Source: a virus (Duplodnaviria; Heunggongvirae; Uroviricota; Caudoviricetes). Taken from it: a DNA stretch of 64,000 nucleotides. A model generated the notes under the pieces. It was not told where the DNA came from. It worked only from the letters and a program-made list of their open reading frames with translations, and made no database searches. The translations under genes were made by a program, and so were the position numbers. Location: IMG/VR virus record IMGVR_UViG_3300028586_000764. One strand, written 5' to 3'. This document shows positions 9,582 through 28,000 of the stretch, in pieces. Every line of letters begins with the position of its first letter. The first letter of the stretch is position 1.

Positions 9582-9613
9582 TTATACTTAAATGTGTTAT
9601 ACTTTTTAAATCA
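9582..9613 (+). promoter_or_regulatory. AT-rich promoter-like element with duplicated TTATACTT and 23-nt block shared with 27978-28000
   Basis: The sequence is tTTATACTTaaatgtgTTATACTTTTTAAATCA. It lies 20-50 nt upstream of the 9633 ATG. Confidence 0.5.
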
Positions 9614-9632
9614 CTTCGCAATTTAGAACACA

Positions 9633-10688
9633 ATGCCAGTTACCACTACCTCTCAGCTGCCTATCTTCGAGCTCGCCCTGGATGAAGCCTTGGAAGCGCC
9701 CAATGCGCATCACTTTCTGAACGGTGTGCGCAGCGGATACAAGGCGCTGTACGAATCGATTGTGGCAAACTCAGGCAATCGCAAGCGTGGACTTGACGCG
9801 CTTGACGCGTTCTTTGCCGCGAACAATGCCAACGTTCGTCGCCGTCGTGTTGCCGAACTGTGCGCTTGGTCGATTTTCGACAAGCCGTCGCTGCCTACGG
9901 AGCAAGACGCACTACCAGAATTTCTGTGGCTGTTTGCCATGCCCTTCCTGGTGACGTTCACTGCCGAGCAGTTGACGCGCCCGATTCTGCTGGAAGGCCC
10001 GGTCTTCGACGCTGATGCGCTGCTGACCTGTGCCGAAGATGCGGAAGTATTCAATGACGACGGGTTCATCCGGGCATTTTCCACGATGCTGCGTCGTGAT
10101 GACCTGCATGCCTACGGCCCGCGGGGCCTGGCCAGCACGTTTGTGACAGCCGAACTCGGTGGTGACGAAGTGCCGCAGCCGCTGCCACTGCTGATGGACG
10201 AAGACATCGAATCGCATCGCACGGTGGTCTATTTCGTACCCTGCGCGGCTCGTCTGCCAGTTGGCACCCGGCACCTCATGAACAAGGATGCTGTATGGTG
10301 CGAGCAAGAAGCTGCCCGGGTCATCCGTGAAGGCCTGGAAATGCAGGGGCTGGAAATCGATAACGTGCGCAGTCTGCCGCCCTGCCCCATGTCCGAAATC
10401 ATGCTCTATTGCTCGGGCTCCGGCCTGGCTGAGCTGGAATCGAATCTCGCCCGTGCAAAACAAATCTATGGAGAACTCAAAGTGGTCATCAAATATCCGA
10501 TGGAAGGCTTTGCCGAAATCAACGCACTGAACAACGAAGGCCAAGAAATCATGTTGCTGCCGGCTTTTGCGTTCGTCGAACCGCAGGCTGAGCTACGCCA
10601 AGTCGTCAATGCCATCTGTGAACAGCACGATATCCCGTTCAAGGGCTCGTTCACGCCGGCATTCACCGGCAGCCGCCTCATTCACTGA
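9633..10688 (+). CDS. hypothetical protein (351 aa)
   Basis: The long ORF has protein-like composition and an AT-rich promoter region upstream. Confidence 0.7.
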   Translation: MPVTTTSQLPIFELALDEALEAPNAHHFLNGVRSGYKALYESIVANSGNRKRGLDALDAFFAANNANVRRRRVAELCAWSIFDKPSLPTEQDALPEFLWLFAMPFLVTFTAEQLTRPILLEGPVFDADALLTCAEDAEVFNDDGFIRAFSTMLRRDDLHAYGPRGLASTFVTAELGGDEVPQPLPLLMDEDIESHRTVVYFVPCAARLPVGTRHLMNKDAVWCEQEAARVIREGLEMQGLEIDNVRSLPPCPMSEIMLYCSGSGLAELESNLARAKQIYGELKVVIKYPMEGFAEINALNNEGQEIMLLPAFAFVEPQAELRQVVNAICEQHDIPFKGSFTPAFTGSRLIH

Positions 10689-11046
10689 GCCACACGACGG
10701 TCGGAATGTCGACCGGCACCCAGCGCGCGTAGTGGTATTGCCCTTCGCGTATTGTCAGGTGTACCTCTTGCATCCTGGCCGGGGCGCTCACTCGGCCATT
10801 GTCAAACGCCGGCAGGTAGTGGAAAAACCGCACCGGCCGGTGCTGTAACCCCTTCATGGTCAGTTCGACCGTAATCAGGTTGGCAACTTGTTCAAAGCGG
10901 GCCGTCAGCACGCCGAACTGACGTTGGCCCTGCGGCTCCCGCAATATCACGAAAGTCACGCCATCGTGGTCCTCAATGCGCATATCGCATTCCAGGCTCT
11001 CTTCCGCCCCAAGCGAAAAGCGTCTACGCACATACTCCGTCACCAC
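10678..11046 (-). CDS. hypothetical protein (122 aa)
   Basis: A GTG start sits 5 nt after GGAG. The gene is convergent with the 9633 gene. Confidence 0.5.
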   Translation of the reverse strand: MVTEYVRRRFSLGAEESLECDMRIEDHDGVTFVILREPQGQRQFGVLTARFEQVANLITVELTMKGLQHRPVRFFHYLPAFDNGRVSAPARMQEVHLTIREGQYHYARWVPVDIPTVVWLSE

Positions 11047-11206
11047 CGATTCTCCTTATCAAAGCGCCATCTTTCGAGATGATACCGCACCTGGTGTCGC
11101 TTGAGGCTCCCATTTGAAAACACTGTTGCTATAGGTCTTGTGTCTAGCGGGCTCCCAACCCCACAGGCGCTCTTAGGAACCATATTTTTCTTTTAGGAGC
11201 CATACC

Positions 11207-11467
11207 ATGAATACCCAAGTCAATACCCAAGCATCCCAAGCTTACAACGCACGTACCGGTGCAGTTTTCGTCAAAGGCGAACCTGTGCTGATTGCACGTG
11301 AAAGCGACTTCCGGGATTTCATGGAAGAGGCGCCTGCGGAAAAAGTGCACAGCCTGCGTGCATCCCTCGAACTCGCTATCAGCCAATTCGGCGAAGCACG
11401 TTCGGTGGCCTGTGACCTGCTGCGTCAGCGACTGCGTGAAGTTCGCAGTCACATCCAAAGCGCCTGA
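11207..11467 (+). CDS. hypothetical small protein (86 aa)
   Basis: There is an AGGAG RBS 7 nt from the ATG and a terminator directly downstream. Confidence 0.65.
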   Translation: MNTQVNTQASQAYNARTGAVFVKGEPVLIARESDFRDFMEEAPAEKVHSLRASLELAISQFGEARSVACDLLRQRLREVRSHIQSA

Positions 11468-11484
11468 CCGCGTTGATTCAATTA

Positions 11485-11516
11485 GCCGTCTCGATTCTTC
11501 GAGACGGCTTTTTCTT
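11485..11516 (+). terminator. rho-independent terminator
   Basis: The hairpin gccgtctcga-ttctt-cgagacggc is followed by TTTTTC. Confidence 0.85.
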
Positions 11517-11585
11517 TGGCTAAATCGAACCGCTACACCAGCCACAAAGACAGAGACAACTCGAAAACGCATATTCGCCGTGAAG

Positions 11586-12158
11586 ATGCAAACAAAACAA
11601 ATGAAAAACGGTACTGTACCGTCGCACCTGCGTAAGGCGGGCGCCTATCTGATGTCAGCCACATTGCTTGCGGCACTCTCCGCCTGCACGCCGGACCGCC
11701 CCCAGCCCACCGCCCCCACCCTCAATCTGGTTACAGGCTGCTTCGAGTCAATGAACGGATTCGGTGAGCCATACCTGTACGTAGGGTGTCTGACCAAGCC
11801 GGAGTTGGACAGCCTGAATGACCATCAGCCCGACGGCTTCGTGACAAACAACGTGGCCGTATTCAAAGCAGAATATGCAAGTGCCGTTCGCCAGGGCGCA
11901 AGCAATGTCCGCCAGCCAGCGTTGAACCTGATAACGGGTTGTTTTGAAGGTCAGAACCGCATACTGCTGGGCTTGCACAAGCAATGCCCTGTCGGGTTCG
12001 ACACCCTTCAAGAAAAGTTCTTTTCGGCTGGCGTGCTGCGAAAGATTGGCCTGGCGAGGGACACTTACTTCAATCAAGGGGTCGCCGACCTTGAAGTAAG
12101 TCGGCCACGCTATGTTCCGCCCGTCGACTACACCTACCATCCAATCATTATTCTCTGA
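11586..12158 (+). CDS. lipoprotein with internal tandem repeat
   Basis: The lipobox is LLAALSAC. The internal duplication is PTLNLVTGCFE...C and PALNLITGCFE...C. The start could be at 11586, 11601 or a later ATG. Confidence 0.6.
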   Translation: MQTKQMKNGTVPSHLRKAGAYLMSATLLAALSACTPDRPQPTAPTLNLVTGCFESMNGFGEPYLYVGCLTKPELDSLNDHQPDGFVTNNVAVFKAEYASAVRQGASNVRQPALNLITGCFEGQNRILLGLHKQCPVGFDTLQEKFFSAGVLRKIGLARDTYFNQGVADLEVSRPRYVPPVDYTYHPIIIL

Positions 12159-12250
12159 GTTAAAGACAAGCTGGCGCAGGCCGGCTTTTTCTTTTCAGGC
12201 ACTAGTAGGCCGCGTCGTGAGCGGCTCTTCGTTGTCCACTACAATGGCAC

Positions 12251-12280
12251 AAAAAAACCCGCAGACTACGCTGCGGGTTG
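12251..12280 (-). terminator. rho-independent terminator
   Basis: The minus strand reads cccgcag-cgtagt-ctgcggg followed by TTTTTTT. Confidence 0.8.
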
Positions 12281-12291
12281 GAAAAAACATT

Positions 12292-12624
12292 TTAAGCATG
12301 CTCGGGTGCCTCCGTTGGCACTCGCACCAAGGCGCTCCCTACGGAGGTGGCCAACTGTACTTCACCGTTGCTGCGCACGAATTTGAGCGATGTGCCCATA
12401 TCAATGGCCTTCGGGTCGCCAAATAACTCGGCACTGACGTCCTGCAGTCGCAATGGGAATTGCTCTACCGGGATGCCATGTCCTGACAGTTCTCGGAACA
12501 GAACGAGCACAGAACGTGTTGCGGCCAAATGCAGCGGTTGGTTGCCAACCCACAATTCATGTGAGGCTCCGCATACCGCTGCCATAGGAGGTTCAGCTAC
12601 TGGGGAAGCAGCAAGATTTACCAT
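12292..12624 (-). CDS. hypothetical protein (110 aa)
   Basis: There is an AAGGA RBS 7 nt from the ATG at 12624 and a terminator downstream. Confidence 0.6.
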   Translation of the reverse strand: MVNLAASPVAEPPMAAVCGASHELWVGNQPLHLAATRSVLVLFRELSGHGIPVEQFPLRLQDVSAELFGDPKAIDMGTSLKFVRSNGEVQLATSVGSALVRVPTEAPEHA

Positions 12625-12639
12625 CGATATTTCCTTAAA

Positions 12640-12663
12640 GTTGTCCTTTCTCATATAGATAGA
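12640..12663 (-). promoter_or_regulatory. recurrent upstream element (TCTATATG-N4-AGGACAAC)
   Basis: The coding strand reads tctaTCTATATGagaaAGGACAACtttAAGGAaatatcgATG. Confidence 0.45.
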
Positions 12664-12843
12664 CCCAATAAATCGGTATTCCCCAAAAATGACTGACGTT
12701 CCTGTCAGAACTAATTTCGTTCAAGATATTATCGACAACTCACGGTAGTGTCAGCAAATTTTTGAACAAGCAACACATATTTATGAAACATTATCAAGTT
12801 ACTACTCGCTAGACCTATTAGGTCAACTATTTGGAGCACTTCT

Positions 12844-13281
12844 ATGAAGGTCGCTGTCTCGGCTGTCAACGCCAACAATGAAATCGTGCAACTCATCCTT
12901 ACTCCCTCGGACGAACTGCTCGCTGAACAAGCGCGCGTCGTTGCGACTTGCCCCAACCAGCTGCCTTTCCAGGAACTGCACGTCACCTTAGCGACGTCGC
13001 CTTTCCTGCACGAGAACCTGCCCTTACCTGCGCATCCCCCGCACATCGAGCTGGTCGACGTAGCCTCGAAGGTTGAGCGTGACGATAAGACTTCGGTCTA
13101 TCTGCGCGTATCGGACGCTTCACAGAAAGCACTGGAACAATACGTACACGCTATCGCGGCAATGGTGAATCTGAGCCTGCACGACGTGGAACGTGTATTT
13201 CACGTAAGCCTGTCAAACCTGACCGGCGCACCCCGCGGCTCCATCGCAAAGGTCTGGAACCATATTCCGACGTCGGTGTAA
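12844..13281 (+). CDS. hypothetical protein (145 aa)
   Basis: There is a GGAG RBS 7 nt from the ATG, an AT-rich upstream region and a strong terminator downstream. Confidence 0.7.
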   Translation: MKVAVSAVNANNEIVQLILTPSDELLAEQARVVATCPNQLPFQELHVTLATSPFLHENLPLPAHPPHIELVDVASKVERDDKTSVYLRVSDASQKALEQYVHAIAAMVNLSLHDVERVFHVSLSNLTGAPRGSIAKVWNHIPTSV

Positions 13282-13303
13282 GCCGGCACTGCAATACCCT
13301 TCA

Positions 13304-13335
13304 ACCCGTGAGCCAACTTGGTCACGGGTTTTTTC
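13304..13335 (+). terminator. rho-independent terminator
   Basis: The hairpin acccgtgagcc-aactt-ggtcacgggt is followed by TTTTTT. Confidence 0.85.
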
Positions 13336-13350
13336 TTCAACCGGGTAAAG

Positions 13351-13374
13351 AAAAACGCCTCCCGAGGGAGGCGT
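13351..13374 (-). terminator. rho-independent terminator of the Nudix gene
   Basis: The minus strand reads cgcctccc-tcg-ggaggcg followed by TTTTT. Confidence 0.8.
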
Positions 13375-13380
13375 GTGTAA

Positions 13381-13833
13381 TTAGGCAGCGGCAGGGGTGG
13401 CCGGTGCGCAGCGTTGGGCTTCGCGCAGCGCTTCGATGGCGCTGGCCAGCAGGCTCATGAAGTCCGGACAGAACAGTTCAGGGAACTGCCACGCATCGAC
13501 GATAGTTGGAAGCGCCATGCGAATCTCGATGACCTCGTCCGTCATGCTACGCGCGGAGAAAATGTCAGCCGAAACAGCGCAGTATGTGTAGAGCTCTGCC
13601 GTACTGCCGAAACGACGATAGCGTGCCAGAATCCAGGCGTCCAACGAGATGGTGATGTCTGCTTCTTCCTTGCATTCGCGGCTTGCCGCTTCTTCAGGCG
13701 ACTCGCCTTCTTCGATATGGCCCCCGGGGAAGTTAAGCCTGCCGAGCAAGAACTCTGGGCCATGGCGCTTGGTCAGGACCATGACATGGCTGAAGTCTGG
13801 GGAGAATACGATGGATTGAGCGTAACGCTTCAT
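13381..13833 (-). CDS. NUDIX hydrolase
   Basis: The Nudix box is GRLNFPGGHIEEGESPEEAASRECKEEADI. The start at 13833 (MKRYAQ) has an AAAGG RBS. Confidence 0.85.
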   Translation of the reverse strand: MKRYAQSIVFSPDFSHVMVLTKRHGPEFLLGRLNFPGGHIEEGESPEEAASRECKEEADITISLDAWILARYRRFGSTAELYTYCAVSADIFSARSMTDEVIEIRMALPTIVDAWQFPELFCPDFMSLLASAIEALREAQRCAPATPAAA

Positions 13834-13852
13834 GACTACCTTTCGATGTTGA

Positions 13853-13873
13853 ATTGACCTGCAAGGTATAGCC
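13853..13873 (-). promoter_or_regulatory. recurrent upstream element (GGCTATAC-N5-AGGTCAAT)
   Basis: The coding strand reads gtGGCTATACcttgcAGGTCAATtcaacatcgAAAGGtagtcATG. Confidence 0.5.
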
Positions 13874-14112
13874 ACACCGCGCTTTAAGCGTACGGGCATC
13901 TTCCTGCCTTTAACGGATTACCTGTCTCGAGTAGCGGTGTTGTGACACGCTCCTTAGGCCCTGGCTCATCTGCGCTTACCAAGCCCCAGTGTTGCTGGCG
14001 TCGTCTAGCAGCCCATTTGAATAGCGCCAGCGCCTCAAGAGTGATGTCGGCCGCGAGTTGGTCGTCAATGGTAAGCAGGACGCGCTAGAACATCCTCGGA
14101 CATTCGAAAAGA

Positions 14113-14138
14113 AAAACCGCATGGCAGAGCATGCGGTT
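14113..14138 (-). terminator. rho-independent terminator
   Basis: The minus strand reads aaccgcatg-ctctgc-catgcggtt followed by TTTTC. Confidence 0.8.
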
Positions 14139-14159
14139 CTTGAATGAAATTGCGACTGC

Positions 14160-14390
14160 TCACATGCTGTCGACGTAATCCTTTGCCTCGCGCAGGCCGA
14201 CGCCCATCTTGTCGCGATACAGCTTGATTGCCTGCATCTCTTTGTTGGCACGCTTGAGAACGCGGCACTGTTCGATGATGGTTTGCTGGTGAGCGTCCTT
14301 CTCAGCCAGCTCTTGTTGACGCAGCTCGGCCAGCTCTTGCTCGAGTTGAACAATACGAGCACGTCGCGCTTCAGGAGTCATTTGTTCCAT
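14160..14390 (-). CDS. small coiled-coil protein with ribosomal L7/L12 C-terminal-domain-like segment
   Basis: AIKLYRDKMGVGLREAKDYVDSM resembles L7/L12 [21 protein letters not shown]. The N-terminus is a coiled coil ARRARIVQLEQELAELRQQ. Confidence 0.55.
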   Translation of the reverse strand: MEQMTPEARRARIVQLEQELAELRQQELAEKDAHQQTIIEQCRVLKRANKEMQAIKLYRDKMGVGLREAKDYVDSM

Positions 14391-14413
14391 ATTCTCATAC
14401 CTTAAAAGTAAAA

Positions 14414-14433
14414 ACTGTCCTGATTACAAATTA
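14414..14433 (-). promoter_or_regulatory. variant upstream element (TAATTTGTAATC-AGGACAGT)
   Basis: The coding strand reads cagTAATTTGTAATcAGGACAGTttttacttttAAGGtatgagaatATG. Confidence 0.35.
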
Positions 14434-14482
14434 CTGCCCGACTTCCAGGCTACTGCTGAAAGTCGGGACGCGGACGCACCGC

Positions 14483-14710: not shown

Positions 14711-14724
14711 GCGTTTCCTCTCAT

Positions 14725-14758: not shown

Positions 14759-14774
14759 AAATGCCTTTCGGCTG

Positions 14775-19336: not shown

Positions 19337-21838
19337 ATGAAACTCGCAAATAGCCACGCTTCCGGAAATATCGTTGCCAGTGAGGGCATTCAGACCACGA
19401 GCGCGTTCGGCATCGCCCGCACGCCGCACATGTTCAACATCCTCTCCAGCGGCCTGTATTCCGATAAGATTGCGGCGGTACTACGCGAAATTAGCTGTAA
19501 CGCGATGGACGCCCACATCATGGGCGGTACTCCCGACAGACCTTTCCAGGTAAAGCTGCCAACGTCGCTCGACCGTTCCTTCCACGTGAAGGATTGGGGC
19601 CCAGGCCTGAACGACCAGGAGGTGCGCGAACTGTACACCACCTATGGCTGGTCGAGTAAGCAAAACAGTGACGACGTTACCGGTGCCTTCGGCCTGGGCT
19701 CGAAATCGCCGTTTGCGTACACGACGCAAAACGAAGAAGACAGCGATGGCTTCACCATCGTCTCGACAAAAGATGGCTTCAAGCGCATCTACACCTGCCA
19801 CATCGGTGAAGATGGTGCGCCGGCTATCAGCCGCCTGCACGAAGGCCCGGCCGACGCCGACTGGCCGCATGGCGTGATGGTCACCTTCCCGGTGCAGACG
19901 CGCGATATCGCTGAATTCCATCAGAAAGCCGTGGAAATCTATCAGTGGTTCCGCATCAAGCCGGAAATGCTCGGCCTGAATGGCCAGCTGTCGGCGCCCG
20001 AGTTCGACTTCCAGGGTTCGTTCTTCTCGATGAAACGCAAAGACAACGGTTCCGACCGTGGCGCTAGCGTCATCACCGGCAACGTGCGCTACCCCATCGA
20101 ACAGAGCCGCCTGGGCAGCCTGACGCCTATCGAAGAAGCGTTGCTGACGTCGAGCATCCACATGCACTTGCCAATCGGCCAAGTCATGATGACGCCGTCG
20201 CGTGAAACGCTGCAGTACACCGAGCAGACCAAGAGCAACCTGAAGCGACACCTCGCGGCCGCGGCCAACGAAGTTGCTGAACGCGTGCGTGAATACGTGA
20301 TGACGCCGGAGCCGACCCGATGGGCATGGTTCAAGAAGATTCACTCGTACCACGCATCCCTGCCTCACGGCATTCAGTATCGTATCGAGAAGTTCCTGGA
20401 AGCTGCCGGCGTGCCTGAAGAAGAAATCAAGATGGTGTCGCAAGCGGTGAAAGAGAACACCATCGAAGTACCCGGCTGGGTCGGCGATGGCATCGGCGGT
20501 CCGGCCGTGGAGTTCGAGTTCAACGAAGACGGCACGTACAAGCGTGACGCTCAGGGCATGCGTGTTGTGGTGCCGCGAGAACACAACTTCGGCGCCCGTG
20601 TCTATCTGTACGGATATGACAAGGCTCGTGATGCCGTCAGCCGCCGTGAGTTCATCAACGGCCGTGTGGCCAAAGGTGGCGACAAGCATGGCCGCGTGCA
20701 GCTGAGTTTCCTGTCGAGCATCCACGTGTACTACGCGGACGACAAACTGGCTGACCAGCGCGTGCGCGCGGCGGTGCGTGATGGCGAATGCAACTACGCA
20801 ATGTTGGTCACACCTTGTAAAGGCACGCCTCAAGCATATGCGGCAGAGTACGCCGCACGTCTCGTGGGCAAAAAAGGCCTGGACGGTGTACCCTCGTTCG
20901 GCGTCTCCACACTGGAGATTCCGAGTGCGGTCGAAGAAGCGCGTGAGCGTCGCCGTCGTTTCAAGGAACTGGGCCCACGCGCTACCTTTGCAGACCACGA
21001 AGTGCACTACCTGAGCCTGAACGGCAACATGGCCCGCACCACCCTGGGCGAACTGGAGGACAGCGACCTGTTCTACATGACGGCTACCAAGCTCAACGAA
21101 ATTCGTAAAGGCACTGTTCGCAACAAAGCCGACACGTACGACCACAGCTTCCCCGGCAGCTATCTCGGCGAAGTCGTGCGCAGTATCCGCATCATCGTAG
21201 AGGAACTGGGCTTGCCGGTCTCCGGAATGGTGTTGATGCCAACGGAAGGCGCTGCCCGCCGACTGAAACTGCCGGAACAGGGCTTCAAGCCCTTCCTGCC
21301 GTATTTCGTCGGGGAGCTGAAGGCCAACCGTACGCGCTGGGAAGCACTGACCGCGACGGTCGACCGTACACCACGTGTGGACATGTCGTCGCAGTACAGC
21401 GCCAAGCAGTATGGCTGGCTCGGTACGCTGGGTCATGAGATGCATCGCAACAGCGAGTTCTGGCAGCACTTCGAGGCCGAATTCTCGACCTCGCCGGTAA
21501 CGCATGCCGTTCGGGAATTCGTCAAGAACTCGGACAGCAGCAAGGAAAAGGAGGCAGTGCCGGCCAATCCTGTGTTGCAGGCACTGCAGCTGGTGGCCAC
21601 TCACCTGACCAATCACGGTCTGCCTGAAACGTCGGTGAAGCCGCTGTCGTACTACCAAGTGCGCAACGTGTTCGAGGAGATGGCACCTAGCTTCGAGATT
21701 ATCAACCAGGACGCCATGTGCAACTGGATGCGCGACAGTGACAACCATGAGCACGCCCTGTCGACGTTCCGCATGGTTCTGCAGCTGGACGGGCTGACGG
21801 ACGAAACGAGCGGTCGCACGCTTCGCCTCGTCGCATAA
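19337..21838 (+). CDS. rIIA: rIIA-like protein (N-terminal GHKL/Hsp90-like ATPase domain)
   Basis: FNILSSGLYSDKIAAVLREISCNAMDAH...KDWGPGLND...GAFGLGSKSPFAYTT aligns with T4 rIIA [28 protein letters not shown]...RDFGPGMSD...GGFGLGSKSPFSYTD. Confidence 0.9.
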   Translation: MKLANSHASGNIVASEGIQTTSAFGIARTPHMFNILSSGLYSDKIAAVLREISCNAMDAHIMGGTPDRPFQVKLPTSLDRSFHVKDWGPGLNDQEVRELYTTYGWSSKQNSDDVTGAFGLGSKSPFAYTTQNEEDSDGFTIVSTKDGFKRIYTCHIGEDGAPAISRLHEGPADADWPHGVMVTFPVQTRDIAEFHQKAVEIYQWFRIKPEMLGLNGQLSAPEFDFQGSFFSMKRKDNGSDRGASVITGNVRYPIEQSRLGSLTPIEEALLTSSIHMHLPIGQVMMTPSRETLQYTEQTKSNLKRHLAAAANEVAERVREYVMTPEPTRWAWFKKIHSYHASLPHGIQYRIEKFLEAAGVPEEEIKMVSQAVKENTIEVPGWVGDGIGGPAVEFEFNEDGTYKRDAQGMRVVVPREHNFGARVYLYGYDKARDAVSRREFINGRVAKGGDKHGRVQLSFLSSIHVYYADDKLADQRVRAAVRDGECNYAMLVTPCKGTPQAYAAEYAARLVGKKGLDGVPSFGVSTLEIPSAVEEARERRRRFKELGPRATFADHEVHYLSLNGNMARTTLGELEDSDLFYMTATKLNEIRKGTVRNKADTYDHSFPGSYLGEVVRSIRIIVEELGLPVSGMVLMPTEGAARRLKLPEQGFKPFLPYFVGELKANRTRWEALTATVDRTPRVDMSSQYSAKQYGWLGTLGHEMHRNSEFWQHFEAEFSTSPVTHAVREFVKNSDSSKEKEAVPANPVLQALQLVATHLTNHGLPETSVKPLSYYQVRNVFEEMAPSFEIINQDAMCNWMRDSDNHEHALSTFRMVLQLDGLTDETSGRTLRLVA

Positions 21839-21858
21839 CGAAACTACCGCAATTCTTC

Positions 21859-21887: not shown

Positions 21888-21952
21888 CGTCGCACGAGTC
21901 GTCAGCACCCTGCATTTTAGAAGGAATCCAGGCGCTGCATGTAAATCTCGTT

Positions 21953-21994: not shown

Positions 21995-22011
21995 TTCAAG
22001 GAGAAGAATCA

Positions 22012-23151
22012 ATGAGCTATATCCGCACCCTCGGTGGTATTCACATGGTCATCGACGGCAAGCCCATCGCGGTTGCCCAAAGTGACAAGCATTTCCAATC
22101 GGTCCTCGAGGCGCTCAAGCGCAAAGCGACGGATGCGGAAATTCTCGACATTCTCGACTCCGAGAAACGTCGCATGGAAGCCGCGGTGCAGGTCGCGCCG
22201 GGTATCGAAATCAAAGGCGGACAGCTGTACTACCAGAACGAGCCGGTTGCCGGCGTGCTGGGCGAGCGCATGATGCAGATGGTCGATGAAGGCTTCGACC
22301 TGACGCCAATGGCAGCCTTCCTGCGAAACCTGATGGAAAACCCGTCCAAGCGCGTGGTCGACCACCTGTACGGTTTCCTGGAATACGGCAAGAACGCCAT
22401 CACCGAAGACGGCTGCTTCCTGGCTTACAAGGCGGTTACCGCCGAATACAAGGACATCTACACCGAAACGTTCGACAACTCGGTCGGTCAGGTCGTCAAG
22501 ATGCCACGCAACCGCGTCAACGAAGACCCTAACCAGACCTGCAGCGACGGCCTGCACGTGTGCAGCTTCGAGTACCTGGATTCGGCGTATGCCCGCAACA
22601 GCGGCCACGTGATGATTTGCAAAATCAATCCGGCCCACGTCGTTGCAGTCCCGACGGACTACAACAACACCAAGATGCGCGTGTGCGAATACGAAGTCAT
22701 GGGTGAGCACGTCGACTACTACCAAAGCAAGAACGACACGCTGTCGGCAACCTCGGTGGCCACCAGCACCAACTCGAACTTCCGCGTCGACGTCGACTAT
22801 GGCAGCGGCTATGGCCATGAAGACGACTTTGAACGCCTGTCGGAAGCTGCGGACCACATGGAATCGCTGCTGGACCGTGACGACGTCAAATCGGTGCGCG
22901 TGGTCAACATCAAGACGGACGCTGTGGTGGACGAGCAGGACAACCCTGACTACGACGATGGCGAAGGCAGCGACGACGACGAGTCGTACACCATCTTCGG
23001 CATCCAGTCGGGTGGCGGTCGCATCCAACTGGAAGATGGCTTCGACAGCGTCAACGATGCTGTCATGGAAGCACTGGAATACGAGAACGGCGTCTACGTC
23101 CGTATCGAAATCGTCGACCAGGACGACAAGGTCGTCAAGACCCTGAGCTGA
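22012..23151 (+). CDS. rIIB: rIIB-like protein
   Basis: IKGGQLYYQN...MENPSKRVVDHLYGFL...ITEDGCFLAYKAV...TFDNSVGQVVKMPRNRVNEDPNQTCSDGLHVCS...KMRVCEYEV aligns with T4 rIIB. The C-terminal half is acidic. Confidence 0.9.
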   Translation: MSYIRTLGGIHMVIDGKPIAVAQSDKHFQSVLEALKRKATDAEILDILDSEKRRMEAAVQVAPGIEIKGGQLYYQNEPVAGVLGERMMQMVDEGFDLTPMAAFLRNLMENPSKRVVDHLYGFLEYGKNAITEDGCFLAYKAVTAEYKDIYTETFDNSVGQVVKMPRNRVNEDPNQTCSDGLHVCSFEYLDSAYARNSGHVMICKINPAHVVAVPTDYNNTKMRVCEYEVMGEHVDYYQSKNDTLSATSVATSTNSNFRVDVDYGSGYGHEDDFERLSEAADHMESLLDRDDVKSVRVVNIKTDAVVDEQDNPDYDDGEGSDDDESYTIFGIQSGGGRIQLEDGFDSVNDAVMEALEYENGVYVRIEIVDQDDKVVKTLS

Positions 23152-23157
23152 TGGCTT

Positions 23158-23192
23158 GGCCGGCGACTGGAGGTATCTCCATGTCGCCGGCC
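23158..23192. repeat. perfect inverted repeat (10-bp arms) immediately after rIIB stop
   Basis: The repeat is GGCCGGCGAC-tggaggtatctccat-GTCGCCGGCC. The T-run lies 8 nt away, so it may be an operator or a weak terminator. Confidence 0.5.
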
Positions 23193-23209
23193 AGAACCTG
23201 ATTTTCCAA

Positions 23210-23240
23210 GGCTTCGTCTCCGGACGAAGCCTTTTTCTTT
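23210..23240 (+). terminator. rho-independent terminator
   Basis: The hairpin ggcttcgtc-tccg-gacgaagcc is followed by TTTTTCTTT. Confidence 0.85.
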
Positions 23241-23261
23241 GCCTGTGTTGAGTTCCCCATG

Positions 23262-23288
23262 AAAAAACGCGCCAGATGGCGCGTTTTC
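23262..23288 (-). terminator. rho-independent terminator for the minus-strand gene cluster
   Basis: The minus strand reads aacgcgcca-tct-ggcgcgtt followed by TTTTTT. Confidence 0.8.
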
Positions 23289-23314
23289 AGCTAATGGGCT
23301 AGCCGCCCTATCGT

Positions 23315-23602
23315 TCATAGACCGTAGTATCGACCTGCCGACGGCTCATGCGAATCTTTCGCACGCCACCATTGCCACCAGGCGGGAGGCGCCCACTTAG
23401 CTGCTTTAGCCGCCTCGTTGCAAAGACGGATAGCCTCCTCTTCGTTGGGTGCGAATGCGTGAATTACGTCCGGCCTGCTGAACGGGGTCCTTGTGAACAG
23501 GATGCAGGCGTCGTAACCTTTTCTATTTGGTGCTAGAGACAAGGCTAGAGGGCTCCACGAGCTTTTTCTGGGCAGGGCGTAACTTGTTGGCGATTTTGAC
23601 AA
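23315..23602 (-). CDS. hypothetical protein (95 aa)
   Basis: The ORF has a dedicated terminator. It overlaps the 3' end of the DUF4031 gene by about 80 nt and the start is uncertain. Confidence 0.4.
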   Translation of the reverse strand: MSKSPTSYALPRKSSWSPLALSLAPNRKGYDACILFTRTPFSRPDVIHAFAPNEEEAIRLCNEAAKAAKWAPPAWWQWWRAKDSHEPSAGRYYGL

Positions 23603-23822
23603 TGTCTCGGGGCCTCACCGCATGTGCCCCGGCTGCCAAAACTTTCTCTCGCTGCTCGTCCGTTACGTCGTAGTGAGGGTGTCGGGCACCGCGATGAAAC
23701 GACGACCTCGCAATGCCCTGCGCCTGGGCGAACGTGTGCAGCTCTTCAAGGCTGTCCGCGGTCATGTGGAAGCGAGGCGTACCCCTTAAGATGATTGCCG
23801 CGTCATCGACATATACCGCCAT
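23523..23822 (-). CDS. DUF4031 family protein
   Basis: The DUF4031-like pattern is MAVYVDDAAIILRGTPRFHMTADSLEELHTFAQAQGI...FHRGARHPHYDVT. There is an AAGGAG RBS 7 nt from the ATG at 23822. Confidence 0.7.
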   Translation of the reverse strand: MAVYVDDAAIILRGTPRFHMTADSLEELHTFAQAQGIARSSFHRGARHPHYDVTDEQREKVLAAGAHAVRPRDIVKIANKLRPAQKKLVEPSSLVSSTK

Positions 23823-23826
23823 ACTT

Positions 23827-24687
23827 TCACTCCTTTTCCAATAGCCTGCCACGGGGCACATCATACCGCTGCCAGAAGCCTCGGAAGATTTCTTGTTCTG
23901 CCGTGACGCGCTTCATCATCGGGCAAGCGAATCGAATAACCAGCGTATGCGACTTCGAGTCCGTCGACTGCCACAGGACTTTTGGCTGCGAACTTGGAAG
24001 GTCCACGAATTCCACACCTTCAATACGTTCGAGGTGGGCATCGGCTTTAACCTGCCAGCCGGACGTCGCGGCTTCAGCCGCATCGAGAGCAGCTTTCTCA
24101 GCTTTCTCGAAGTCTACGTCGTAAGGGACCACGATAGGCAGAAGGTCGACGATGTACTCGCCGGTGGCACTGGAATTACGCACCGGCTGATTGAGCACTG
24201 CACTATTGGGCATGGACAGAGTCTTGCCCGTCAGTTGGTGAGCAGTACCAGTCTCTGCCAGCGTAGTGGTAAAGACATCGATGTCGATGACTCGCCCCTC
24301 TTTCCCTGCGATTTCGATGAAGTCACCCACTCGGTAACTGCGCGAAGTCGTAATCATCACGTAGCCCAGGATGCACATCAAAAGCTCTTTGGACACAAGA
24401 AGGATGGCGCCACCAACTGCAGCCAGGGACAGCATCAGGCCTGCCAGCTTGGTGGCCCAAATAGCAATGACGATGAACACCATCGTGACCCAAACGATGT
24501 TCTTGGCGTGTACGAGCTTTTCACGAGTACGCGATGCGTCCTGGCCGTTACTCGTGCGCAGGAGGAATCGGCCCCAGAGGCGAGTAATCATCACGGCCAG
24601 GCCGATGGTGATAGCCGTGGCAACGATGCGGCCGAGTTCGGTCGCATAATAGTTCTGTAAGACTGCCAGGATGGATTTCAGAGTCAT
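23827..24687 (-). CDS. small-conductance mechanosensitive channel (MscS family)
   Basis: Three TM segments are followed by the MscS beta domain GDFIEIAGKEGRVIDIDVFTTTL...LSMPNSAVLNQPVRN. Confidence 0.85.
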   Translation of the reverse strand: MTLKSILAVLQNYYATELGRIVATAITIGLAVMITRLWGRFLLRTSNGQDASRTREKLVHAKNIVWVTMVFIVIAIWATKLAGLMLSLAAVGGAILLVSKELLMCILGYVMITTSRSYRVGDFIEIAGKEGRVIDIDVFTTTLAETGTAHQLTGKTLSMPNSAVLNQPVRNSSATGEYIVDLLPIVVPYDVDFEKAEKAALDAAEAATSGWQVKADAHLERIEGVEFVDLPSSQPKVLWQSTDSKSHTLVIRFACPMMKRVTAEQEIFRGFWQRYDVPRGRLLEKE

Positions 24688-24696
24688 GGATTGCGG

Positions 24697-25218
24697 TTAG
24701 AAGGTAGGAACAGTAAAGCCTTGAGCAGCAAAAAGCGCGCGGTCAGCTACGACAACGGCGGCAACGCGCGGACAAAGCTCGCGCCAGTGGCATGCGAAAT
24801 GCTCTTTGTGTCTGGGAAGGTCGGCGAAAGACCGGTGCACTTCGGCTTCGAGGAAGTGACGGTCATGCACAGCCCAATGTTCAACACAGATGTACTCGCC
24901 GACCACGGCCTCGTTATTGAGGCGCTTGAGACGTTTGTCCGGCGCCAGGCGCGTCATGCCAACCTTGAGAAAGTCCGGTGTCACCGGGTTGGCGACAACG
25001 TACAGATGGCCGTGATTTTTCTTCCAGAGGGCTGCCAGTGACGCGTGCGCAAAATCCGTCCATTCGTCGGCTAGAACGTGTTCTCGGATAGCACGGGCGA
25101 CGTCAGTTTTGCCGGCGCGGATGGCTCGAGCGAGCAATCGGCCATGGGCGAGCGTGTCCTGTGCTGTAAAGGCACTGAACAGGCGCGTAAGGGTTTGATT
25201 GGATACAGAGGGTTGCAT
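24697..25218 (-). CDS. T5orf172 (GIY-YIG-like) domain protein
   Basis: GHLYVVANPVTPDFLKVGMTRLAPDKRLKRLNNEAVVGEY...EAEVHRSFAD is T5orf172-like. The start at 25218 has a weak RBS. Confidence 0.65.
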   Translation of the reverse strand: MQPSVSNQTLTRLFSAFTAQDTLAHGRLLARAIRAGKTDVARAIREHVLADEWTDFAHASLAALWKKNHGHLYVVANPVTPDFLKVGMTRLAPDKRLKRLNNEAVVGEYICVEHWAVHDRHFLEAEVHRSFADLPRHKEHFACHWRELCPRVAAVVVADRALFAAQGFTVPTF

Positions 25219-25334
25219 CCAATTATGTAGCAAGTTGACTTTATCCCAAAGCACTGGCTAACCGATTGCTGCTGCGGACGAGTCGGCGTTGCCTAGACAA
25301 CGTTGAAGATACTTTAATGAGTATAAAGCGCCAC

Positions 25335-25362
25335 GCTATACCGGGAGGACCGCGGACTATAC
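25335..25362 (+). promoter_or_regulatory. recurrent upstream element (GCTATAC-N4-AGGACCGC, then CTATAC)
   Basis: The sequence is cacGCTATACcgggAGGACCGCggaCTATACgtcg, about 50 nt upstream of 25413. Confidence 0.4.
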
Positions 25363-25412
25363 GTCGTATGACCGTCTCGGCATATCACTATTCACACGAA
25401 TCAAGAGGCGCC

Positions 25413-26768
25413 ATGAATCAAGAACTGCAAGAGTTGCTGCGAACTCCCCGCGAGGACCTGGATATCGAGCTTAAACAGTGGATGGACCCGGAAGACAAAT
25501 CGGTTCAAGCAAAATTTGCAAAAGAGTTGTTGGCACTCAGGAATCATGGAGGGGGCTATCTGGTTGTAGGGTTCTTGGATGAGCACCCTCCTTCGGAGGA
25601 CCCTGCACGCCCTGAAAATTTGTCTGCGTTCAGTACGGACTACTTCAATAACATCATTAAAAAATATGCCGAGCCTCCATTTCACTGTAACTCCCGAGTA
25701 ATTGTCCACCCGGTAAGTGGCAAAGAGTACCCTATTGTCGTGGTCCCAGGCGGAGCAACCCATCCCGTTCGATGCAAGGCGGATTCTCCTGATATGGGAA
25801 AAAGTGCCAAAATTAACAGCTATTACATTCGTCGCCCGGGCCCGGAAAGCAATACTCCACAGTCGGGCGCTGAATGGGACGAACTGATTAAGCGGTGTAT
25901 GTTGGCACAAAAAGAATCCATGCTTTCTGCCATTGCAACGCTAATGGGGCTAAACCGTGGCAGTGTCTCGGCCTATGTCCCTGCTGAGCCAATTCATCCT
26001 CTTTCGGAACTTCGGAAGTTCCGAGACGAAGCAATTGCAGCACTGGAGACCTTACAGCAAACGAAATTGCCAGCAAACGACGCTGCCCGCTTTCCAAACG
26101 GTCGATATGTCCTGTCTGCTCGAATTGTCGGACAGCTACAGAACCTTACGCAAAAAGAAATGCTTGACCGACTCACACGGCTGCGCCGCTACACGGGTTG
26201 GTCTCCTCTGTACGTATTTTCGCGCCCCGAACTTGCCCCCTATCCTGTGGATGAAAGGCAGGTGGAGTGCTGGTTAGGTCAGGGAGAGGACAGGGACGTG
26301 GGCCACGCCGATTTTTGGCGAATGTCTACCGATGGCTTCGTGACGCTGATTAGGGGCCATCAGGAAGATGGCCATGAAGCGGCAACTACCGGCATCCACC
26401 CTGGAAAAGGACTGGAGCTCACATTGCCCGCATGGCGTATCGCAGAGTTTCTGCTTCGGGTACGAGAATACGGAGCAGCGGTCACCGAAGGAGACTTTAC
26501 CATTCAACTAATCGTACAGTGGGAAGGCCTTGAAGGTCGACAGCTGTTCAGTTATGGAAACCGGCGTTGGCTTCCTGAGGGCTTTGAGGCAAAAGTCCAA
26601 AACTACCAAAAGGAAGTGGAGTTAACGCCGGCGGAAATTGATGTGGCACTTCCGACAGTATTGAATACTCTGGTAACTCCGCTCCTACGCCACTTTTCAT
26701 TTTTTGAACCCCCAGCGGATTTCTACGAGGGGGAACTAGGAGCGCTACAGAATCGAGGCAGCTTGTAA
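25413..26768 (+). CDS. AlbA_2 (Schlafen-like putative DNA-binding) domain protein with about 300-aa C-terminal domain
   Basis: LDIELKQWMDPEDKSVQAKFAKELLALRNHGGGYLVVGF is AlbA_2-like. There is an AGAGG RBS. Confidence 0.7.
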   Translation: MNQELQELLRTPREDLDIELKQWMDPEDKSVQAKFAKELLALRNHGGGYLVVGFLDEHPPSEDPARPENLSAFSTDYFNNIIKKYAEPPFHCNSRVIVHPVSGKEYPIVVVPGGATHPVRCKADSPDMGKSAKINSYYIRRPGPESNTPQSGAEWDELIKRCMLAQKESMLSAIATLMGLNRGSVSAYVPAEPIHPLSELRKFRDEAIAALETLQQTKLPANDAARFPNGRYVLSARIVGQLQNLTQKEMLDRLTRLRRYTGWSPLYVFSRPELAPYPVDERQVECWLGQGEDRDVGHADFWRMSTDGFVTLIRGHQEDGHEAATTGIHPGKGLELTLPAWRIAEFLLRVREYGAAVTEGDFTIQLIVQWEGLEGRQLFSYGNRRWLPEGFEAKVQNYQKEVELTPAEIDVALPTVLNTLVTPLLRHFSFFEPPADFYEGELGALQNRGSL

Positions 26769-26821
26769 TTCGTTCCTGGCTGTGCAGTAGATACGCCAAG
26801 CGAGTCTGGTATGTCTTGTCG

Positions 26822-26847
26822 AAAAAGCGCAACCTTTGGGTTGCGCT
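26822..26847 (-). terminator. rho-independent terminator
   Basis: The minus strand reads agcgcaacc-caaa-ggttgcgct followed by TTTTTC. Confidence 0.75.
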
Positions 26848-26941
26848 ATCTTTCAATCTAGACAGAAAAAACGTCCCGGAATCCGGAACTCACGCGTATT
26901 ACGCACGTGAGCCCAAATTTCGGGACGTAGAAATGCTGGAG

Positions 26942-27193
26942 TCAGAGGTCCAGTGTCATGTTTCGAGCACGGGTGGCCTGGTCATGGCGGAGCATTAGCT
27001 GCCGTTCGCCGTCGCAAAGGAGACGCTTGAGCTGACGAAGCTTGAACAGGTAAAGCTCGACTGGTTGGCCGTCGACGGTGAGTTGGACGGTAAAGTCCTT
27101 CACCTTTTCGAGCGCCGTTGTGTCAGGAACGCGTTCTTCGATGTAAAGCAGTTTGCCGCTGGCTTCGAGACTGCCTAGTTTTACGATTTTCAT
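26942..27193 (-). CDS. hypothetical small protein (83 aa)
   Basis: The ORF is contiguous with the 27190 gene (4-nt overlap) and the RBS is weak. Confidence 0.5.
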   Translation of the reverse strand: MKIVKLGSLEASGKLLYIEERVPDTTALEKVKDFTVQLTVDGQPVELYLFKLRQLKRLLCDGERQLMLRHDQATRARNMTLDL

Positions 27194-27834
27194 CGGATTT
27201 CTCGCACTACGCGTGGACCGACCTGACGGTCTGTGTAGTCGACCAGTCGAACCACTTTGATGTCGGCACGCTTGAGCAACGTCAGCGCGGTCGTTTTTGC
27301 TTCTTTCATCGTTGGCAGCCAGGTGAACAGCCGCTCGCCGGCTTCCGATGGAAGCGCGTCGGTAGCGTTGTCGGTGGCATATGCATGCACCTCAAAACCG
27401 CCGCGCGGCGCCTTAGCGCGTAGCACCACGATGCCAAATTCGTCGATGACCTGCGAGCTACCATACTCGCAGTCAGGTTCGAGAACGCGTTCTGCCTGCT
27501 CTTTTGCGTCGCCGAACGGCAGCCGCGAGATTTCCTTGACGGGGTCACGTGCTTCGAGGCCTGCGAATAGCTCGACGCGATAGCGACCCGAGGCTTCGAG
27601 AGGATTCGGTGGCGCGTCCGGCGTCGACTCCATCCGCTCGAAAGCAACGTTACTTGCCTGGGCCAGTGACAGTGAGACCACCATAGCCTGGCTGGGCAGC
27701 GCCTGATGAATCAAGTCGTGTGCTGTCACCAGACCGTCTTGCTGATTCGCTGCGTCGACTTCGATTTCGATGCGAACGATTGCCGGTACCTCGAAGGTAG
27801 CCTTATATTTGTTGGTCGTGTTGTCAGTTGTCAT
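27190..27834 (-). CDS. hypothetical protein (214 aa)
   Basis: AGGACACC lies 2-6 nt before the ATG and acts as the RBS. The upstream element is at 27839-27872. Confidence 0.65.
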   Translation of the reverse strand: MTTDNTTNKYKATFEVPAIVRIEIEVDAANQQDGLVTAHDLIHQALPSQAMVVSLSLAQASNVAFERMESTPDAPPNPLEASGRYRVELFAGLEARDPVKEISRLPFGDAKEQAERVLEPDCEYGSSQVIDEFGIVVLRAKAPRGGFEVHAYATDNATDALPSEAGERLFTWLPTMKEAKTTALTLLKRADIKVVRLVDYTDRQVGPRVVREIR

Positions 27835-27838
27835 GTTG

Positions 27839-27872
27839 GTGTCCTGTGAAACAAATGCATGCGGCGTATAGG
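27839..27872 (-). promoter_or_regulatory. recurrent upstream element (GCCTATAC-N20-AGGACACC)
   Basis: The coding strand reads gtgCCTATACgccgcatgcatttgtttcacAGGACACCaaATG. Confidence 0.4.
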
Positions 27873-27955
27873 CACGCGCTTTCTTAGTCTTTCACGTTCA
27901 AAAATCTTTGGCACGCGTTCCCGTTTTAGCCACTAACTTATCCAGAATTTAGATG

Positions 27956-28000
27956 CAATACTTTCTAAAATGATGCGAATGTAATATACTTTTTACATCA
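27956..28000 (+). promoter_or_regulatory. AT-rich promoter-like element with 23-nt block shared with 9591-9613
   Basis: The sequence is gcAATACTTTctaaaatgatgcgAATGTAATATACTTTTTACATCA. Compare AATGTGTTATACTTTTTAAATCA at 9591-9613. Confidence 0.5.

Follow-up and report, generated by a model that had tools for sequence, protein, structure and literature searches.

The window, the whole 64 kb stretch of DNA analysed here, is part of a giant phage-like element of at least 810 kb. The genes of this element, orphans for the most part, include rIIA/rIIB and a PolA with an intein. Nearly the same 23 nucleotides occur in two intergenic regions of the window, and this observation raises two questions. 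First, what kind of signal is the repeated block? Second, why do its two copies agree at more positions than such a signal needs? In our view each 23-mer is likely to form the core, from about -19 to +4, of a promoter recognised by an RNA polymerase with a housekeeping (group 1, sigma-70-type) sigma factor. Sigma regions 2 and 3, together with the open complex, make their contacts in the stretch from -19 to +4 (geometry: Hinton 2010, PMC2988021).

Occurrence and extent of the repeated block

The two copies and the genes that follow them are:

9591-9613, + strand: 23-mer copy 1, AATGTGTTATACTTTTTAAATCA, about -19 to +4 of the predicted promoter (site 1)
9633-10688, + strand: gene A, 351 aa, proposed target of site 1
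27978-28000, + strand: 23-mer copy 2, AATGTAATATACTTTTTACATCA, about -19 to +4 of the predicted promoter (site 2)
28094-28507, + strand: gene B, 137 aa, DUF6884 family (Pfam PF21818, E = 2.3e-36), proposed target of site 2

As a sequence-only reading had described, the two intergenic blocks, both on the + strand, match at 20 of 23 bases, and each is followed by a + strand gene, with starts at 9633 and 28094 respectively. Its AT islands are also real, both blocks lying inside the two largest of the window (9543-9642 with 28% GC around site 1, and 27924-28018 with 30.5% GC around site 2); the GC content of the window is 56.9%, not roughly 59%. When the two sites are aligned in register, 13/45 positions are identical upstream of the block, 20/23 within it and 11/37 downstream, the similarity ending sharply at both block edges. 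The 23-mer had also been taken to define a promoter class, but it has just two copies in the 64 kb (no third copy with three or fewer mismatches exists anywhere in the window), and 229 kb of related loci add none, the block being found there solely at orthologous positions. The two promoter cores are real and conserved in relatives; they represent a known type of signal and no large new class.

Shuffling the whole window gave no match as good as the 23-mer pair, a test that ignores local AT-richness. Shuffling the 8.2 kb of intergenic DNA in blocks of 20 or 40 nt produced a direct match of 20/23 somewhere in 3 of 300 trials (p ~0.01). The match is significant, yet not overwhelming taken alone. 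It is very unlikely, in our view, that the identity is a chance likeness of two AT-rich promoter regions, meaningless beyond the -10 hexamer. The three composition-matched shuffles fit such a likeness, as does a related contig, L022, that lacks the block; however, once the register is fixed by the hexamer, at least 10 of about 13 non-required positions match (estimated p ~1e-3 at 33% background), and each copy is separately conserved in relatives. The additional positions common to both cores are A-19, A-18, C-8, TTTTA from -6 to -2 and ATCA from +1 to +4. These identities, at least 10 in number, surpass the needs of sigma-70, and generic promoter function does not account for them. They probably stem either from a common ancestor of the two cores or from base preferences that the polymerase, or some factor, has around the discriminator and start site of both.

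The blocks had further been described as preceded, at 15-22 nt, by a second copy of (T/A)ATACTTT. Such copies do exist (TTATACTT at 9582 and ATACTTTCTA at 27958), but the spacing from start to start is 15 and 28 nt. They are two-copy repeats with unequal spacing, and they are not conserved, TATACTTA being changed to AATATAAA or TAGCCTTA and AATACTTT to AAGACTTC or AGGGCTTC in relatives. A further copy of the motif had been placed at 57149:

57149-57159, + strand: AATACTTTAAG, in an AT island flanked by convergent genes; does not belong to the motif

This region scores at most 10 bits with the position weight matrix, against 42 for the two true sites, and its 8-mer occurs at chance level; WATACTTT, this site included, has 4 occurrences in the window where 1.0 would be expected, a count attained in 4 of 100 shuffles.

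It is extremely improbable that the blocks are origin-like iterons, as had also been suggested, or another repeated replication or packaging site. The AT-rich islands and the short ATACTT direct repeat at each site are in keeping with this idea. However, an iteron-type origin needs at least three regular, conserved direct repeats, commonly accompanied by DnaA boxes or an AT-rich unwinding element, and the two sites fall short of this, each having only two half-copies, 15 or 28 nt apart. DnaA boxes are not enriched (22 versus 27.6 expected), and the GC skew does not turn at either site. Since the upstream ATACTT copies are not conserved, the origin reading fails.

The predicted promoter upstream of gene A

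The elements recognised at site 1 are:

9563-9573, + strand: A/T tract, UP-element-like in sequence, abutting the -35 hexamer
9574-9579, + strand: -35 hexamer TTAGCA, found by consensus scan, 18 nt ahead of the -10
9593-9597, + strand: TGTGT, with TG at -15/-14 (9595-9596)
9598-9603, + strand: -10 hexamer TATACT
9604-9609, + strand: T-rich discriminator
9610-9632, + strand: predicted gene A leader, 23 nt, ATCACTTCGCAATTTAGAACACA, conserved in the alignment of relatives

A consensus scan flags 9574-9603 as TTAGCA, 18 nt and TATACT with TG. In the whole window, the only scan matches that bear the TG are this one and the following, each of them lying between genes, within an AT island and ahead of a gene:

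54309-54337, + strand: putative third sigma-70-type promoter (TTGGCA, 17 nt, TGcTATAAT), ahead of terD, whose ATG is at 54414

The latter is the best consensus match of the window (11/12 with TG), and a TerD domain is recognised in the product of terD. It has TGTG at -17 to -14 in common with site 1, the remainder of the 23-mer being absent.

It is the related metagenomic contigs that decide the promoter reading. All 11 upstream regions of gene A orthologues (29-100% protein identity) contain TAnnnT with T-12, A-11 and T-7, in the forms TATACT, TATAAT, TATTAT, TATAGT, TAAAAT and TAATAT. TG is present at -15/-14 in 9 of them by script, or in 10 by eye when the second TAAAAT of L026 is used, and the distance from hexamer to ATG is 27-31 nt in 9. 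Across 15 orthologous regions the hexamer varies solely at -10, -9 and -8, with T-12, A-11 and T-7 fixed, a pattern that fits the known information content of the sigma-70 -10 element. The -35 hexamer is conserved in five genomes, reading TTAGCA, TTAGCT or CTAGCA in four relatives with a constant 18-nt spacer. Independent scans of two contigs gave TTAGCA, 18 nt, TGtTATAAT (L017) and TTGATT, 17 nt, TGtTATAGT (L024). From -17 to the ATG, 38/43 positions are identical between the window and L025, with an overall aligned nucleotide identity of 71%, and this segment is nearly invariant among relatives whose gene A proteins are 63-89% identical. The A/T tract, which overlaps the stop codon of an RNase H-like gene (8783-9568), is A/T-rich in L019, L017, L015 and L025 too, though individual bases differ, and it may act as an UP element.

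The suggestion of promoters with a TATACT -10 is in this way supported by phylogenetic footprinting, strongly so at site 1, where sequence comparison argues firmly for a sigma-70 promoter of the -35/TGn/-10 type. The elements, their geometry and their conservation are read directly from the aligned sequences; the start, A9610, is predicted from standard -10 geometry. We propose that the UP-like AAATTTTT, TTAGCA, the 18-nt spacer ending in TGt and TATACT would direct transcription from about A9610, and that the transcript would consist of a 23-nt leader followed by gene A. The predicted leader ends in AGAACACA, similar to an AGGACAC box; the AGGACAC box precedes many start codons in the window.

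Gene A has no Pfam or PHROG match, and its 23 homologues are every one metagenomic. Its predicted structure is confident (pLDDT 91.5), and comparison of the model with the PDB yielded no relative.

The predicted promoter upstream of gene B

Three more elements are found around copy 2:

27961-27972, + strand: invariant box CTTTCTAAAATG, at roughly -36 to -25 relative to the predicted start at site 2
27985-27990, + strand: -10 hexamer TATACT
28012-28045, + strand: hairpin, then TTTCTTG, within the predicted 97-nt gene B leader, from the minimum-free-energy fold

Site 2 by itself would fail a standard promoter scan, its -35 matching at 3/6 positions and its TG being displaced to -17/-16 (27980-27981) from -15/-14. 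The weak -35 candidate, TTTCTA (27962-27967, 17-nt spacer), lies within the box. The box reads CTTYCTAAAATG in the window, L020, L021 and L022 and is the sole identical stretch of that intergenic region. It is centred near -30, always 12 nt before a TAnAnT hexamer, which is TATACT, TACACT, TACACT and TACAGT in the four genomes. A -10-like TAAAAT also occurs inside the box (27966-27971), and the actual -10 at site 2 could be this upstream hexamer; the box could instead belong to the divergent gene at 27190-27834.

In our proposal, site 2 would use the same -10 hexamer, T-rich discriminator and ATCA start as site 1, beginning at about A27997, with CTTYCTAAAATG near -30 in place of a good -35 and a canonical TG, and a 97-nt hairpin leader would precede the DUF6884 gene. 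The start at A27997 is again a prediction. The fold of the leader has z = -2.0, and the hairpin is found in L020, L021 and L034, with a compensatory change in one pair only.

The block reads TGTAATACACTTTTTACATCAA in L020 and L021, while L022 has lost it, retaining the upstream box and, of the block, the position of the hexamer alone (TACAGT). To judge by this genome, the block outside the hexamer would be dispensable. This bears on the idea that the 23-mer is chiefly an operator or activator site at which a protein of the element or the host co-regulates genes A and B, an idea that would add to the promoter reading and that we regard as rather unlikely. The two sites agree at 20/23 positions, as against about 10/23 (by eye) for site 1 and the terD promoter; the block is preserved letter for letter at each site among close relatives; and a short dyad, TGTAA-N8-TTACA, occurs at site 2 and in its relatives. 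However, site 1 has no such dyad (TGTGT ... TTAAA), L022 keeps gene, box and -10 while the block is gone, and distant gene A orthologues retain only TGnTAnnnT. In addition, no DNA-binding protein was recognised among the scanned proteins of the window, and, by eye, no IHF or CRP consensus is preserved at both sites.

Which polymerase may read the predicted promoters

The presence of sigma-70-type promoters in a phage is expected in itself. Both sites resemble extended -10 promoters in having TAnnnT with T-12, A-11 and T-7 and in lying ahead of a gene that runs in the same direction. TG occupies -15/-14 at site 1 and in 9-10 of the 11 regions ahead of gene A orthologues, whereas at site 2 it stands at -17/-16. 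As for the -35-like hexamer expected at 16-18 nt, site 1 agrees with sigma-70 at 4/6 positions with an 18-nt spacer, and site 2 at 3/6 with 17 nt. Outside the general consensus lie the T-rich discriminator and the ATCA start of both sites.

Most genes of the element have a different motif upstream, GCTATA(C/G), which is 9-fold enriched in intergenic DNA and absent on their own strand upstream of genes A and B. This motif is the better candidate for an element-specific promoter. Because most genes have it, the few sigma-70-type promoters are most simply understood as those that the host holoenzyme could use without element factors, and they would be early or constitutive. The identity of the polymerase, like promoter strength and timing, is inferred here from sequence elements.

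Huge phages often carry their own transcription factors. The blocks might be promoters for a polymerase or sigma factor encoded by the element or, in another version, site 2 might be comparable to a T4 middle promoter with an activator at the -30 box; we judge this to be quite unlikely. The poor -35, the invariant -30 box and the sigma-70-type -10 of site 2 together have the geometry of T4 MotA-dependent promoters (PMC2988021), and the 10-mer TTCTAAAATG of the box occurs three times in the window, in intergenic DNA, against 0.07 expected. Against this, no extra factor is needed at site 1, given its conventional -35 with an 18-nt spacer and its canonical TGn. Only site 2 combines a sigma-70 -10 with a box near -30 (-36 to -25, invariant in four genomes), as T4 middle (MotA/AsiA) promoters do, and its CTTYCTAAAATG differs from the MotA box, TGCTT(t/c)A. 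No gene for MotA, AsiA, a sigma factor or a polymerase was identified in the 64 kb window; the genome extends to at least 810 kb, and sigma factors or a polymerase of its own may be encoded elsewhere in it. The abundant GCTATA(C/G) would also be better suited to an element-specific promoter.

It is also possible, though unlikely, that the block, with its T-rich discriminator and ATCA start, and the recurrent intergenic box TTCTAAAATG mark a small dedicated regulon of megabase-scale phage-like elements in which an element factor redirects the host sigma-70 polymerase, a new analogue of T4 sigma appropriation, with genes A and B as first-wave takeover genes. If this were true, gene A would be a confidently folded takeover protein without a known structural relative.

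The preferred reading, promoters of the sigma-70 type, opens a way, at the level of sequence, into transcription in a lineage of very large, uncultivated phage-like elements. It sets a few bacterial-type promoters, probably usable by unmodified host polymerase, apart from the many genes with GCTATA(C/G), predicts two exact start sites (A9610 and A27997), and suggests that gene A and the DUF6884 gene may be among the first to be expressed.

T4 early promoters (Hinton 2010, PMC2988021) offer a comparison, being phage promoters in AT-rich DNA with several sigma-70 elements and extra conserved positions, and rIIA/rIIB of T4-like phages are present in the element too. However, T4 has dozens of early promoters in 169 kb, whereas the element has two or three in 64 kb, most genes having the other motif; the block itself is present twice in 64 kb, and 229 kb of related loci have it at no other place. 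A T4-type early class, by comparison, has many copies per genome with an extended consensus in common, which act right after infection and need no phage proteins. The -35 of T4 early promoters is also stronger than TTAGCA. Kinship of the element to T4, if any, is remote.

Both sites recall the promoter-early stem-loop (PeSL) cassettes of T4-type phages, reportedly described by Arbiol et al. in 2010, in which short repeated early-promoter sequences are said to stand at unrelated genes. Here, there are two copies only, the shared 23 nt exclude the stem-loop and no sign of recombination or gene shuffling was seen at the sites, but the repeat does lie at unrelated genes, with a stem-loop beside the promoter at site 2.

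The 23-mer pair and its surroundings

The sequence-only reading had pointed to a near-identical AT-rich 23-mer in two intergenic regions, and this pair is confirmed, with 20 of the 23 bases shared, both copies on the + strand and a + strand ORF downstream of each (starts 9633 and 28094):

9591-9613, + strand, AATGTGTTATACTTTTTAAATCA: site 1, before gene A (9633-10688, 351 aa)
27978-28000, + strand, AATGTAATATACTTTTTACATCA: site 2, before gene B, of the DUF6884 family

Each copy lies in one of the two largest AT islands in the window, with 28% and 30.5% GC respectively against 56.9% window-wide. The similarity has sharp edges, since the in-register identity is 20/23 within the block and only 13/45 upstream and 11/37 downstream of it. 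No third copy was found at up to three mismatches in a search of the whole window. Shuffling of the whole window gave 0 expected matches, which exaggerates the significance because local AT-richness is ignored; with shuffling confined to the 8.2 kb of intergenic DNA, in blocks of 20 or 40 nt, 3 of 300 shuffles produced at least one direct match at 20/23.

Each block had also been described as preceded by a second copy of (T/A)ATACTTT. Two-copy repeats of ATACTT are indeed present, but their spacing is unequal (15 versus 28 nt) and they are unconserved in relatives. WATACTTT, including the site at 57149 that had been added to the motif, occurs 4 times versus 1.0 expected, and 4 or more occurrences were obtained in 4 of 100 shuffles; judged by these counts and by its matrix score, the 57149 site does not belong to the 23-mer motif. 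The position matrix, built from aligned sites, matched only the two sites in the window (42 bits versus 11 for the next best) and only the orthologous positions in 229 kb of related loci. A pattern scan of IMG/VR with TGTNNTATACTTTTTANATCA returned 13 matches, which we regard as chance because all lie in AT-rich contigs (22-43% GC) unrelated to the window.

Conservation of the two sites in related loci

Gene A has a graded series of metagenomic homologues, and the DNA upstream of it was compared in 11 genomes including the window (positions are counted from the predicted starts, A9610 and A27997). In the five closest genomes (63-100% gene A protein identity) the intergenic region aligns gap-free, with a -35 of TTAGCA, TTAGCT or CTAGCA, an 18-nt spacer ending in TGTGT, a -10 hexamer of TATACT, TATAAT or TATTAT, and then TTTT(T/A)AAATCA(C/A)TTCGCAAT(T/C)TA(G/A)A...CAATG. 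Between the window and the related locus L025, 38 of 43 bases are identical from -17 to the ATG, the overall aligned identity being 71%. Around the distant orthologues (29-55% identity) the surroundings are unrelated, yet each has a TAnnnT hexamer (TGtTATAGT twice, TGaTATAAT, TGcTAATAT, TGcTAAAAT and cGtTATAAT), usually 27-31 nt before the ATG. T-12, A-11 and T-7 are constant in 11/11 genomes and -10 to -8 are variable, a pattern that, at the level of sequence, marks a sigma-70-type -10 element. The TG at -15/-14 corresponds to the extended -10 element (for the definitions of -10 elements, see Hinton 2010, PMC2988021). A generic promoter scan calls site 1 (TTAGCA, 18 nt, TATACT, with TG) as well as its counterparts in L017 (10/12, with TG) and L024 (TTGATT, 17 nt, TATAGT, with TG). 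The upstream TATACTT at 9583 is replaced by AATATAA in L019 and by TAGCCTT in L017 and L015, and is therefore not a functional repeat; as a second -10, TATACT there was rejected, being unconserved and without a -35 at workable spacing.

For site 2, the comparison covered DUF6884 gene orthologues together with their flanking DNA. L020 and L021 retain the block as (A/G)TGTAATACACTTTTTACATCAA, with TACACT as the hexamer. The block is gone from L022 (68% protein identity), which makes the extra shared bases dispensable; L022 still carries TACAGT 12 nt from an invariant box, the sole stretch identical in all four genomes:

27961-27972, CTTYCTAAAATG: invariant box of site 2 (CTTTCTAAAATG box)

Given a -10 at 27985-27990, the box lies at about -36 to -25. 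The -35 is a 3/6 hexamer, TTTCTA, within the box at a 17-nt spacer, and the TG is at -17/-16 rather than -15/-14; with its poor -35 and displaced TG, site 2 is thus a weaker promoter call than site 1. By analogy the box might be an activator site, since its geometry resembles the activator position of T4 middle promoters (PMC2988021). Alternatively, its TAAAAT might serve as the -10 of a second promoter in tandem upstream, or the box might be a signal that acts on the divergent gene 27190-27834, whose start is itself preceded, at 37 nt, by a conserved CTATAC motif.

The predicted 97-nt leader of the DUF6884 gene contains a hairpin:

28012-28045: hairpin with an 11-15-nt loop (GTGCTCGACA...), then TTTCTTG

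The hairpin is found again in L020, L021 and L034, where covariation is slight, and could be a candidate attenuator, stabiliser or protein-binding site. A similar hairpin precedes a non-syntenic DUF6884 gene copy in L031.

Proposed promoter function and other intergenic motifs

In the best-supported account, a housekeeping-sigma holoenzyme would bind each site by its -10 hexamer, with additional use at site 1 of the TGn, the moderate -35 and the upstream A/T tract, and would start transcription at A9610 and A27997. Most simply, both sites would be promoters usable by the unaided host enzyme, since another motif dominates the window and no sigma or RNA polymerase gene is visible in it. Polymerase identity, start sites, promoter strength and timing are what we infer for both sites. 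The picture resembles that of T4 early promoters, in which several sigma-70 elements stand together with extra conserved positions (PMC2988021). Sigma-70-type and extended -10 promoters are already well known in phage genomes; what is new here is a known kind of promoter in an unusual genome, together with a minor unexplained excess identity between the two copies.

This excess comprises about 10 shared bases beyond sigma-70 needs, namely A-19, A-18, C-8, TTTTA (-6 to -2) and ATCA (+1 to +4), with a chance that we estimate at about 1e-3 when the register is fixed by the hexamer. To account for it, either the two cores descend from one ancestor or their discriminators and start sites are under the same constraint, the source of which could be a polymerase preference or an overlapping regulator.

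The suggestion of origin-like iterons was rejected: each site has two half-copies, unequally spaced and unconserved, with no DnaA-box enrichment and no turn of the skew. An RNA element was also rejected, the block being mostly upstream of the predicted start and without an Rfam match; neither Rfam nor tRNA scans gave anything near either site. Compared by eye, the two sites do not both fit an IHF site (WATCAANNNNTTR), and the CRP half-sites at site 1 (TGTGT...TCAC) are 13 nt apart and unconserved.

A sigma-70-like scan of the whole window gave 29 consensus matches, near the shuffle expectation. Just two of the 29 have the TG, site 1 and the following, each of them an intergenic site that lies within an AT island and precedes a gene:

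54309-54337: predicted terD promoter, TTGGCA, 17 nt, TGcTATAAT (11/12 consensus), 77 nt before the ATG at 54414

Site 1 and the terD promoter have TGTG in common at -17 to -14, so that the TGT of the 23-mer is part of the extended -10. The other bases shared by the two 23-mers are all missing from the terD promoter, whose discriminator is GC-rich. On this reckoning the window would hold about three bacterial-type promoters, two of them with an unusually similar core.

The motif CTATA(C/G), often after TTG, has 9 times the density in intergenic DNA that it has in coding DNA (19 of 33 matches fall in 8.3 kb of intergenic DNA), usually lies 20-80 nt upstream of same-strand starts and has no T at the -7 equivalent. 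It is presumably the first promoter-like class of the sequence-only reading. Examples of (TT)GCTATA(C/G) are:

11129, 19287, 21954, 38096 and 51018, + strand
38069, 27871 and 17371, - strand

The copy before rIIB lies inside a stretch of 27 nt that is unchanged in L020 and L021. A box, AGGACAC, precedes many start codons in the window. As candidate roles, (TT)GCTATA(C/G) is probably the main element-specific promoter and AGGACAC probably a ribosome-binding signal.

The 10-mer TTCTAAAATG occurs 3 times versus 0.07 expected, always intergenic:

21913-21922, - strand
27963-27972, + strand, in the invariant box of site 2
57209-57218, + strand

TTCTAAAA occurs 7 times versus 0.99 expected, again all intergenic, also at 5427, 29389, 42921 and 54295; two of its copies are included in an exact 16-mer, TTCTAAAAACCTCCTG, at 5419-5434 and 42913-42928.

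The TTCTAAAATG copy at 57209 lies in a third AT island (57092-57296), between convergent genes. On its - strand this island has TATAAT at 57122-57127 and, immediately beyond the terminator of 57297-58220, GCTATAG (57234); a small transcript or gene that lacks annotation may begin in the island. The non-coding block 11118-11206, upstream of an 86-aa ORF (11207-11467), includes a GCTATAG motif and is at least 93% identical (at least 28 per 30 nt) in L015 and L025, where the gene A proteins are just 63-74% identical; it may represent a conserved leader, or alternatively a small RNA.

The source element and its relatives

The recognisable features of the window include:

19337-21838: rIIA
22012-23151: rIIB
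31727-35149: family A DNA polymerase ORF, 1140 aa, interrupted by an intein-like segment
48389-50779, - strand: complete group II intron (Rfam domains 1-4 and domains 5/6, the window's only Rfam matches)
48464-50224: intron ORF with reverse transcriptase, maturase and HNH domains, between the Rfam matches

Residues ~380-810 of the polymerase ORF are similar to intein-bearing stretches in unrelated phage genes (RNR, NAPRT, nucleotidyltransferase), a similarity that indicates a putative intein inserted in the polymerase. Other recognisable proteins are exonucleases, TerD/TerF proteins and an adenosine deaminase; most ORFs lack a family assignment, and a tRNA scan of the window found none.

A megablast of 20 kb found no DNA-level relative in the phage collection, and even the best rIIA matches stay under 40% identity. 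Protein-guided scans of IMG/VR, singly and as alignments, gave no relatives of genes A and B, and a GTDB scan with the DUF6884 alignment gave just an unrelated Microlunatus gene. The Logan assembly L014 carries the same DNA (99.995% identical), and an identical DUF6884 protein is recorded on a contig of 810,191 bp (P0024). The source would be a giant phage-like element, its phage nature being deduced from rIIA/rIIB and gene content, since no structural genes are in view in the window.

Syntenic relatives, sharing rIIA, a PolA exonuclease, primase and gene A, lie on contigs of 0.81-1.46 Mb, none of them in IMG/VR:

L015 (JGI 3300046810), 1,229,481 bp
L025 (Ga0308158_10000004), 1,463,929 bp
L032, 1,119,147 bp
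L031, 809,642 bp
P0024, 810,191 bp, the contig with the identical DUF6884 protein

These contigs also carry cellular-type genes (TatA/TatC, ExbB/ExbD, flagellin, a two-component system); they may be whole phage genomes, extrachromosomal elements of another kind or chimeric assemblies. A genome of 841.7 kb has been described as the largest of any phage (bioRxiv 10.1101/2025.01.14.633092), and the relatives of 1.1-1.46 Mb exceed this. Gene A has a confident predicted fold with no known relative. These large relatives and the gene A fold are more remarkable than the promoter pair. Finally, a 44-nt direct repeat, 91% identical, at 61173-61216 and 61992-62035, lies within adjacent - strand ORFs (61118-61921 and 61937-62791) and suggests a tandem gene duplication.
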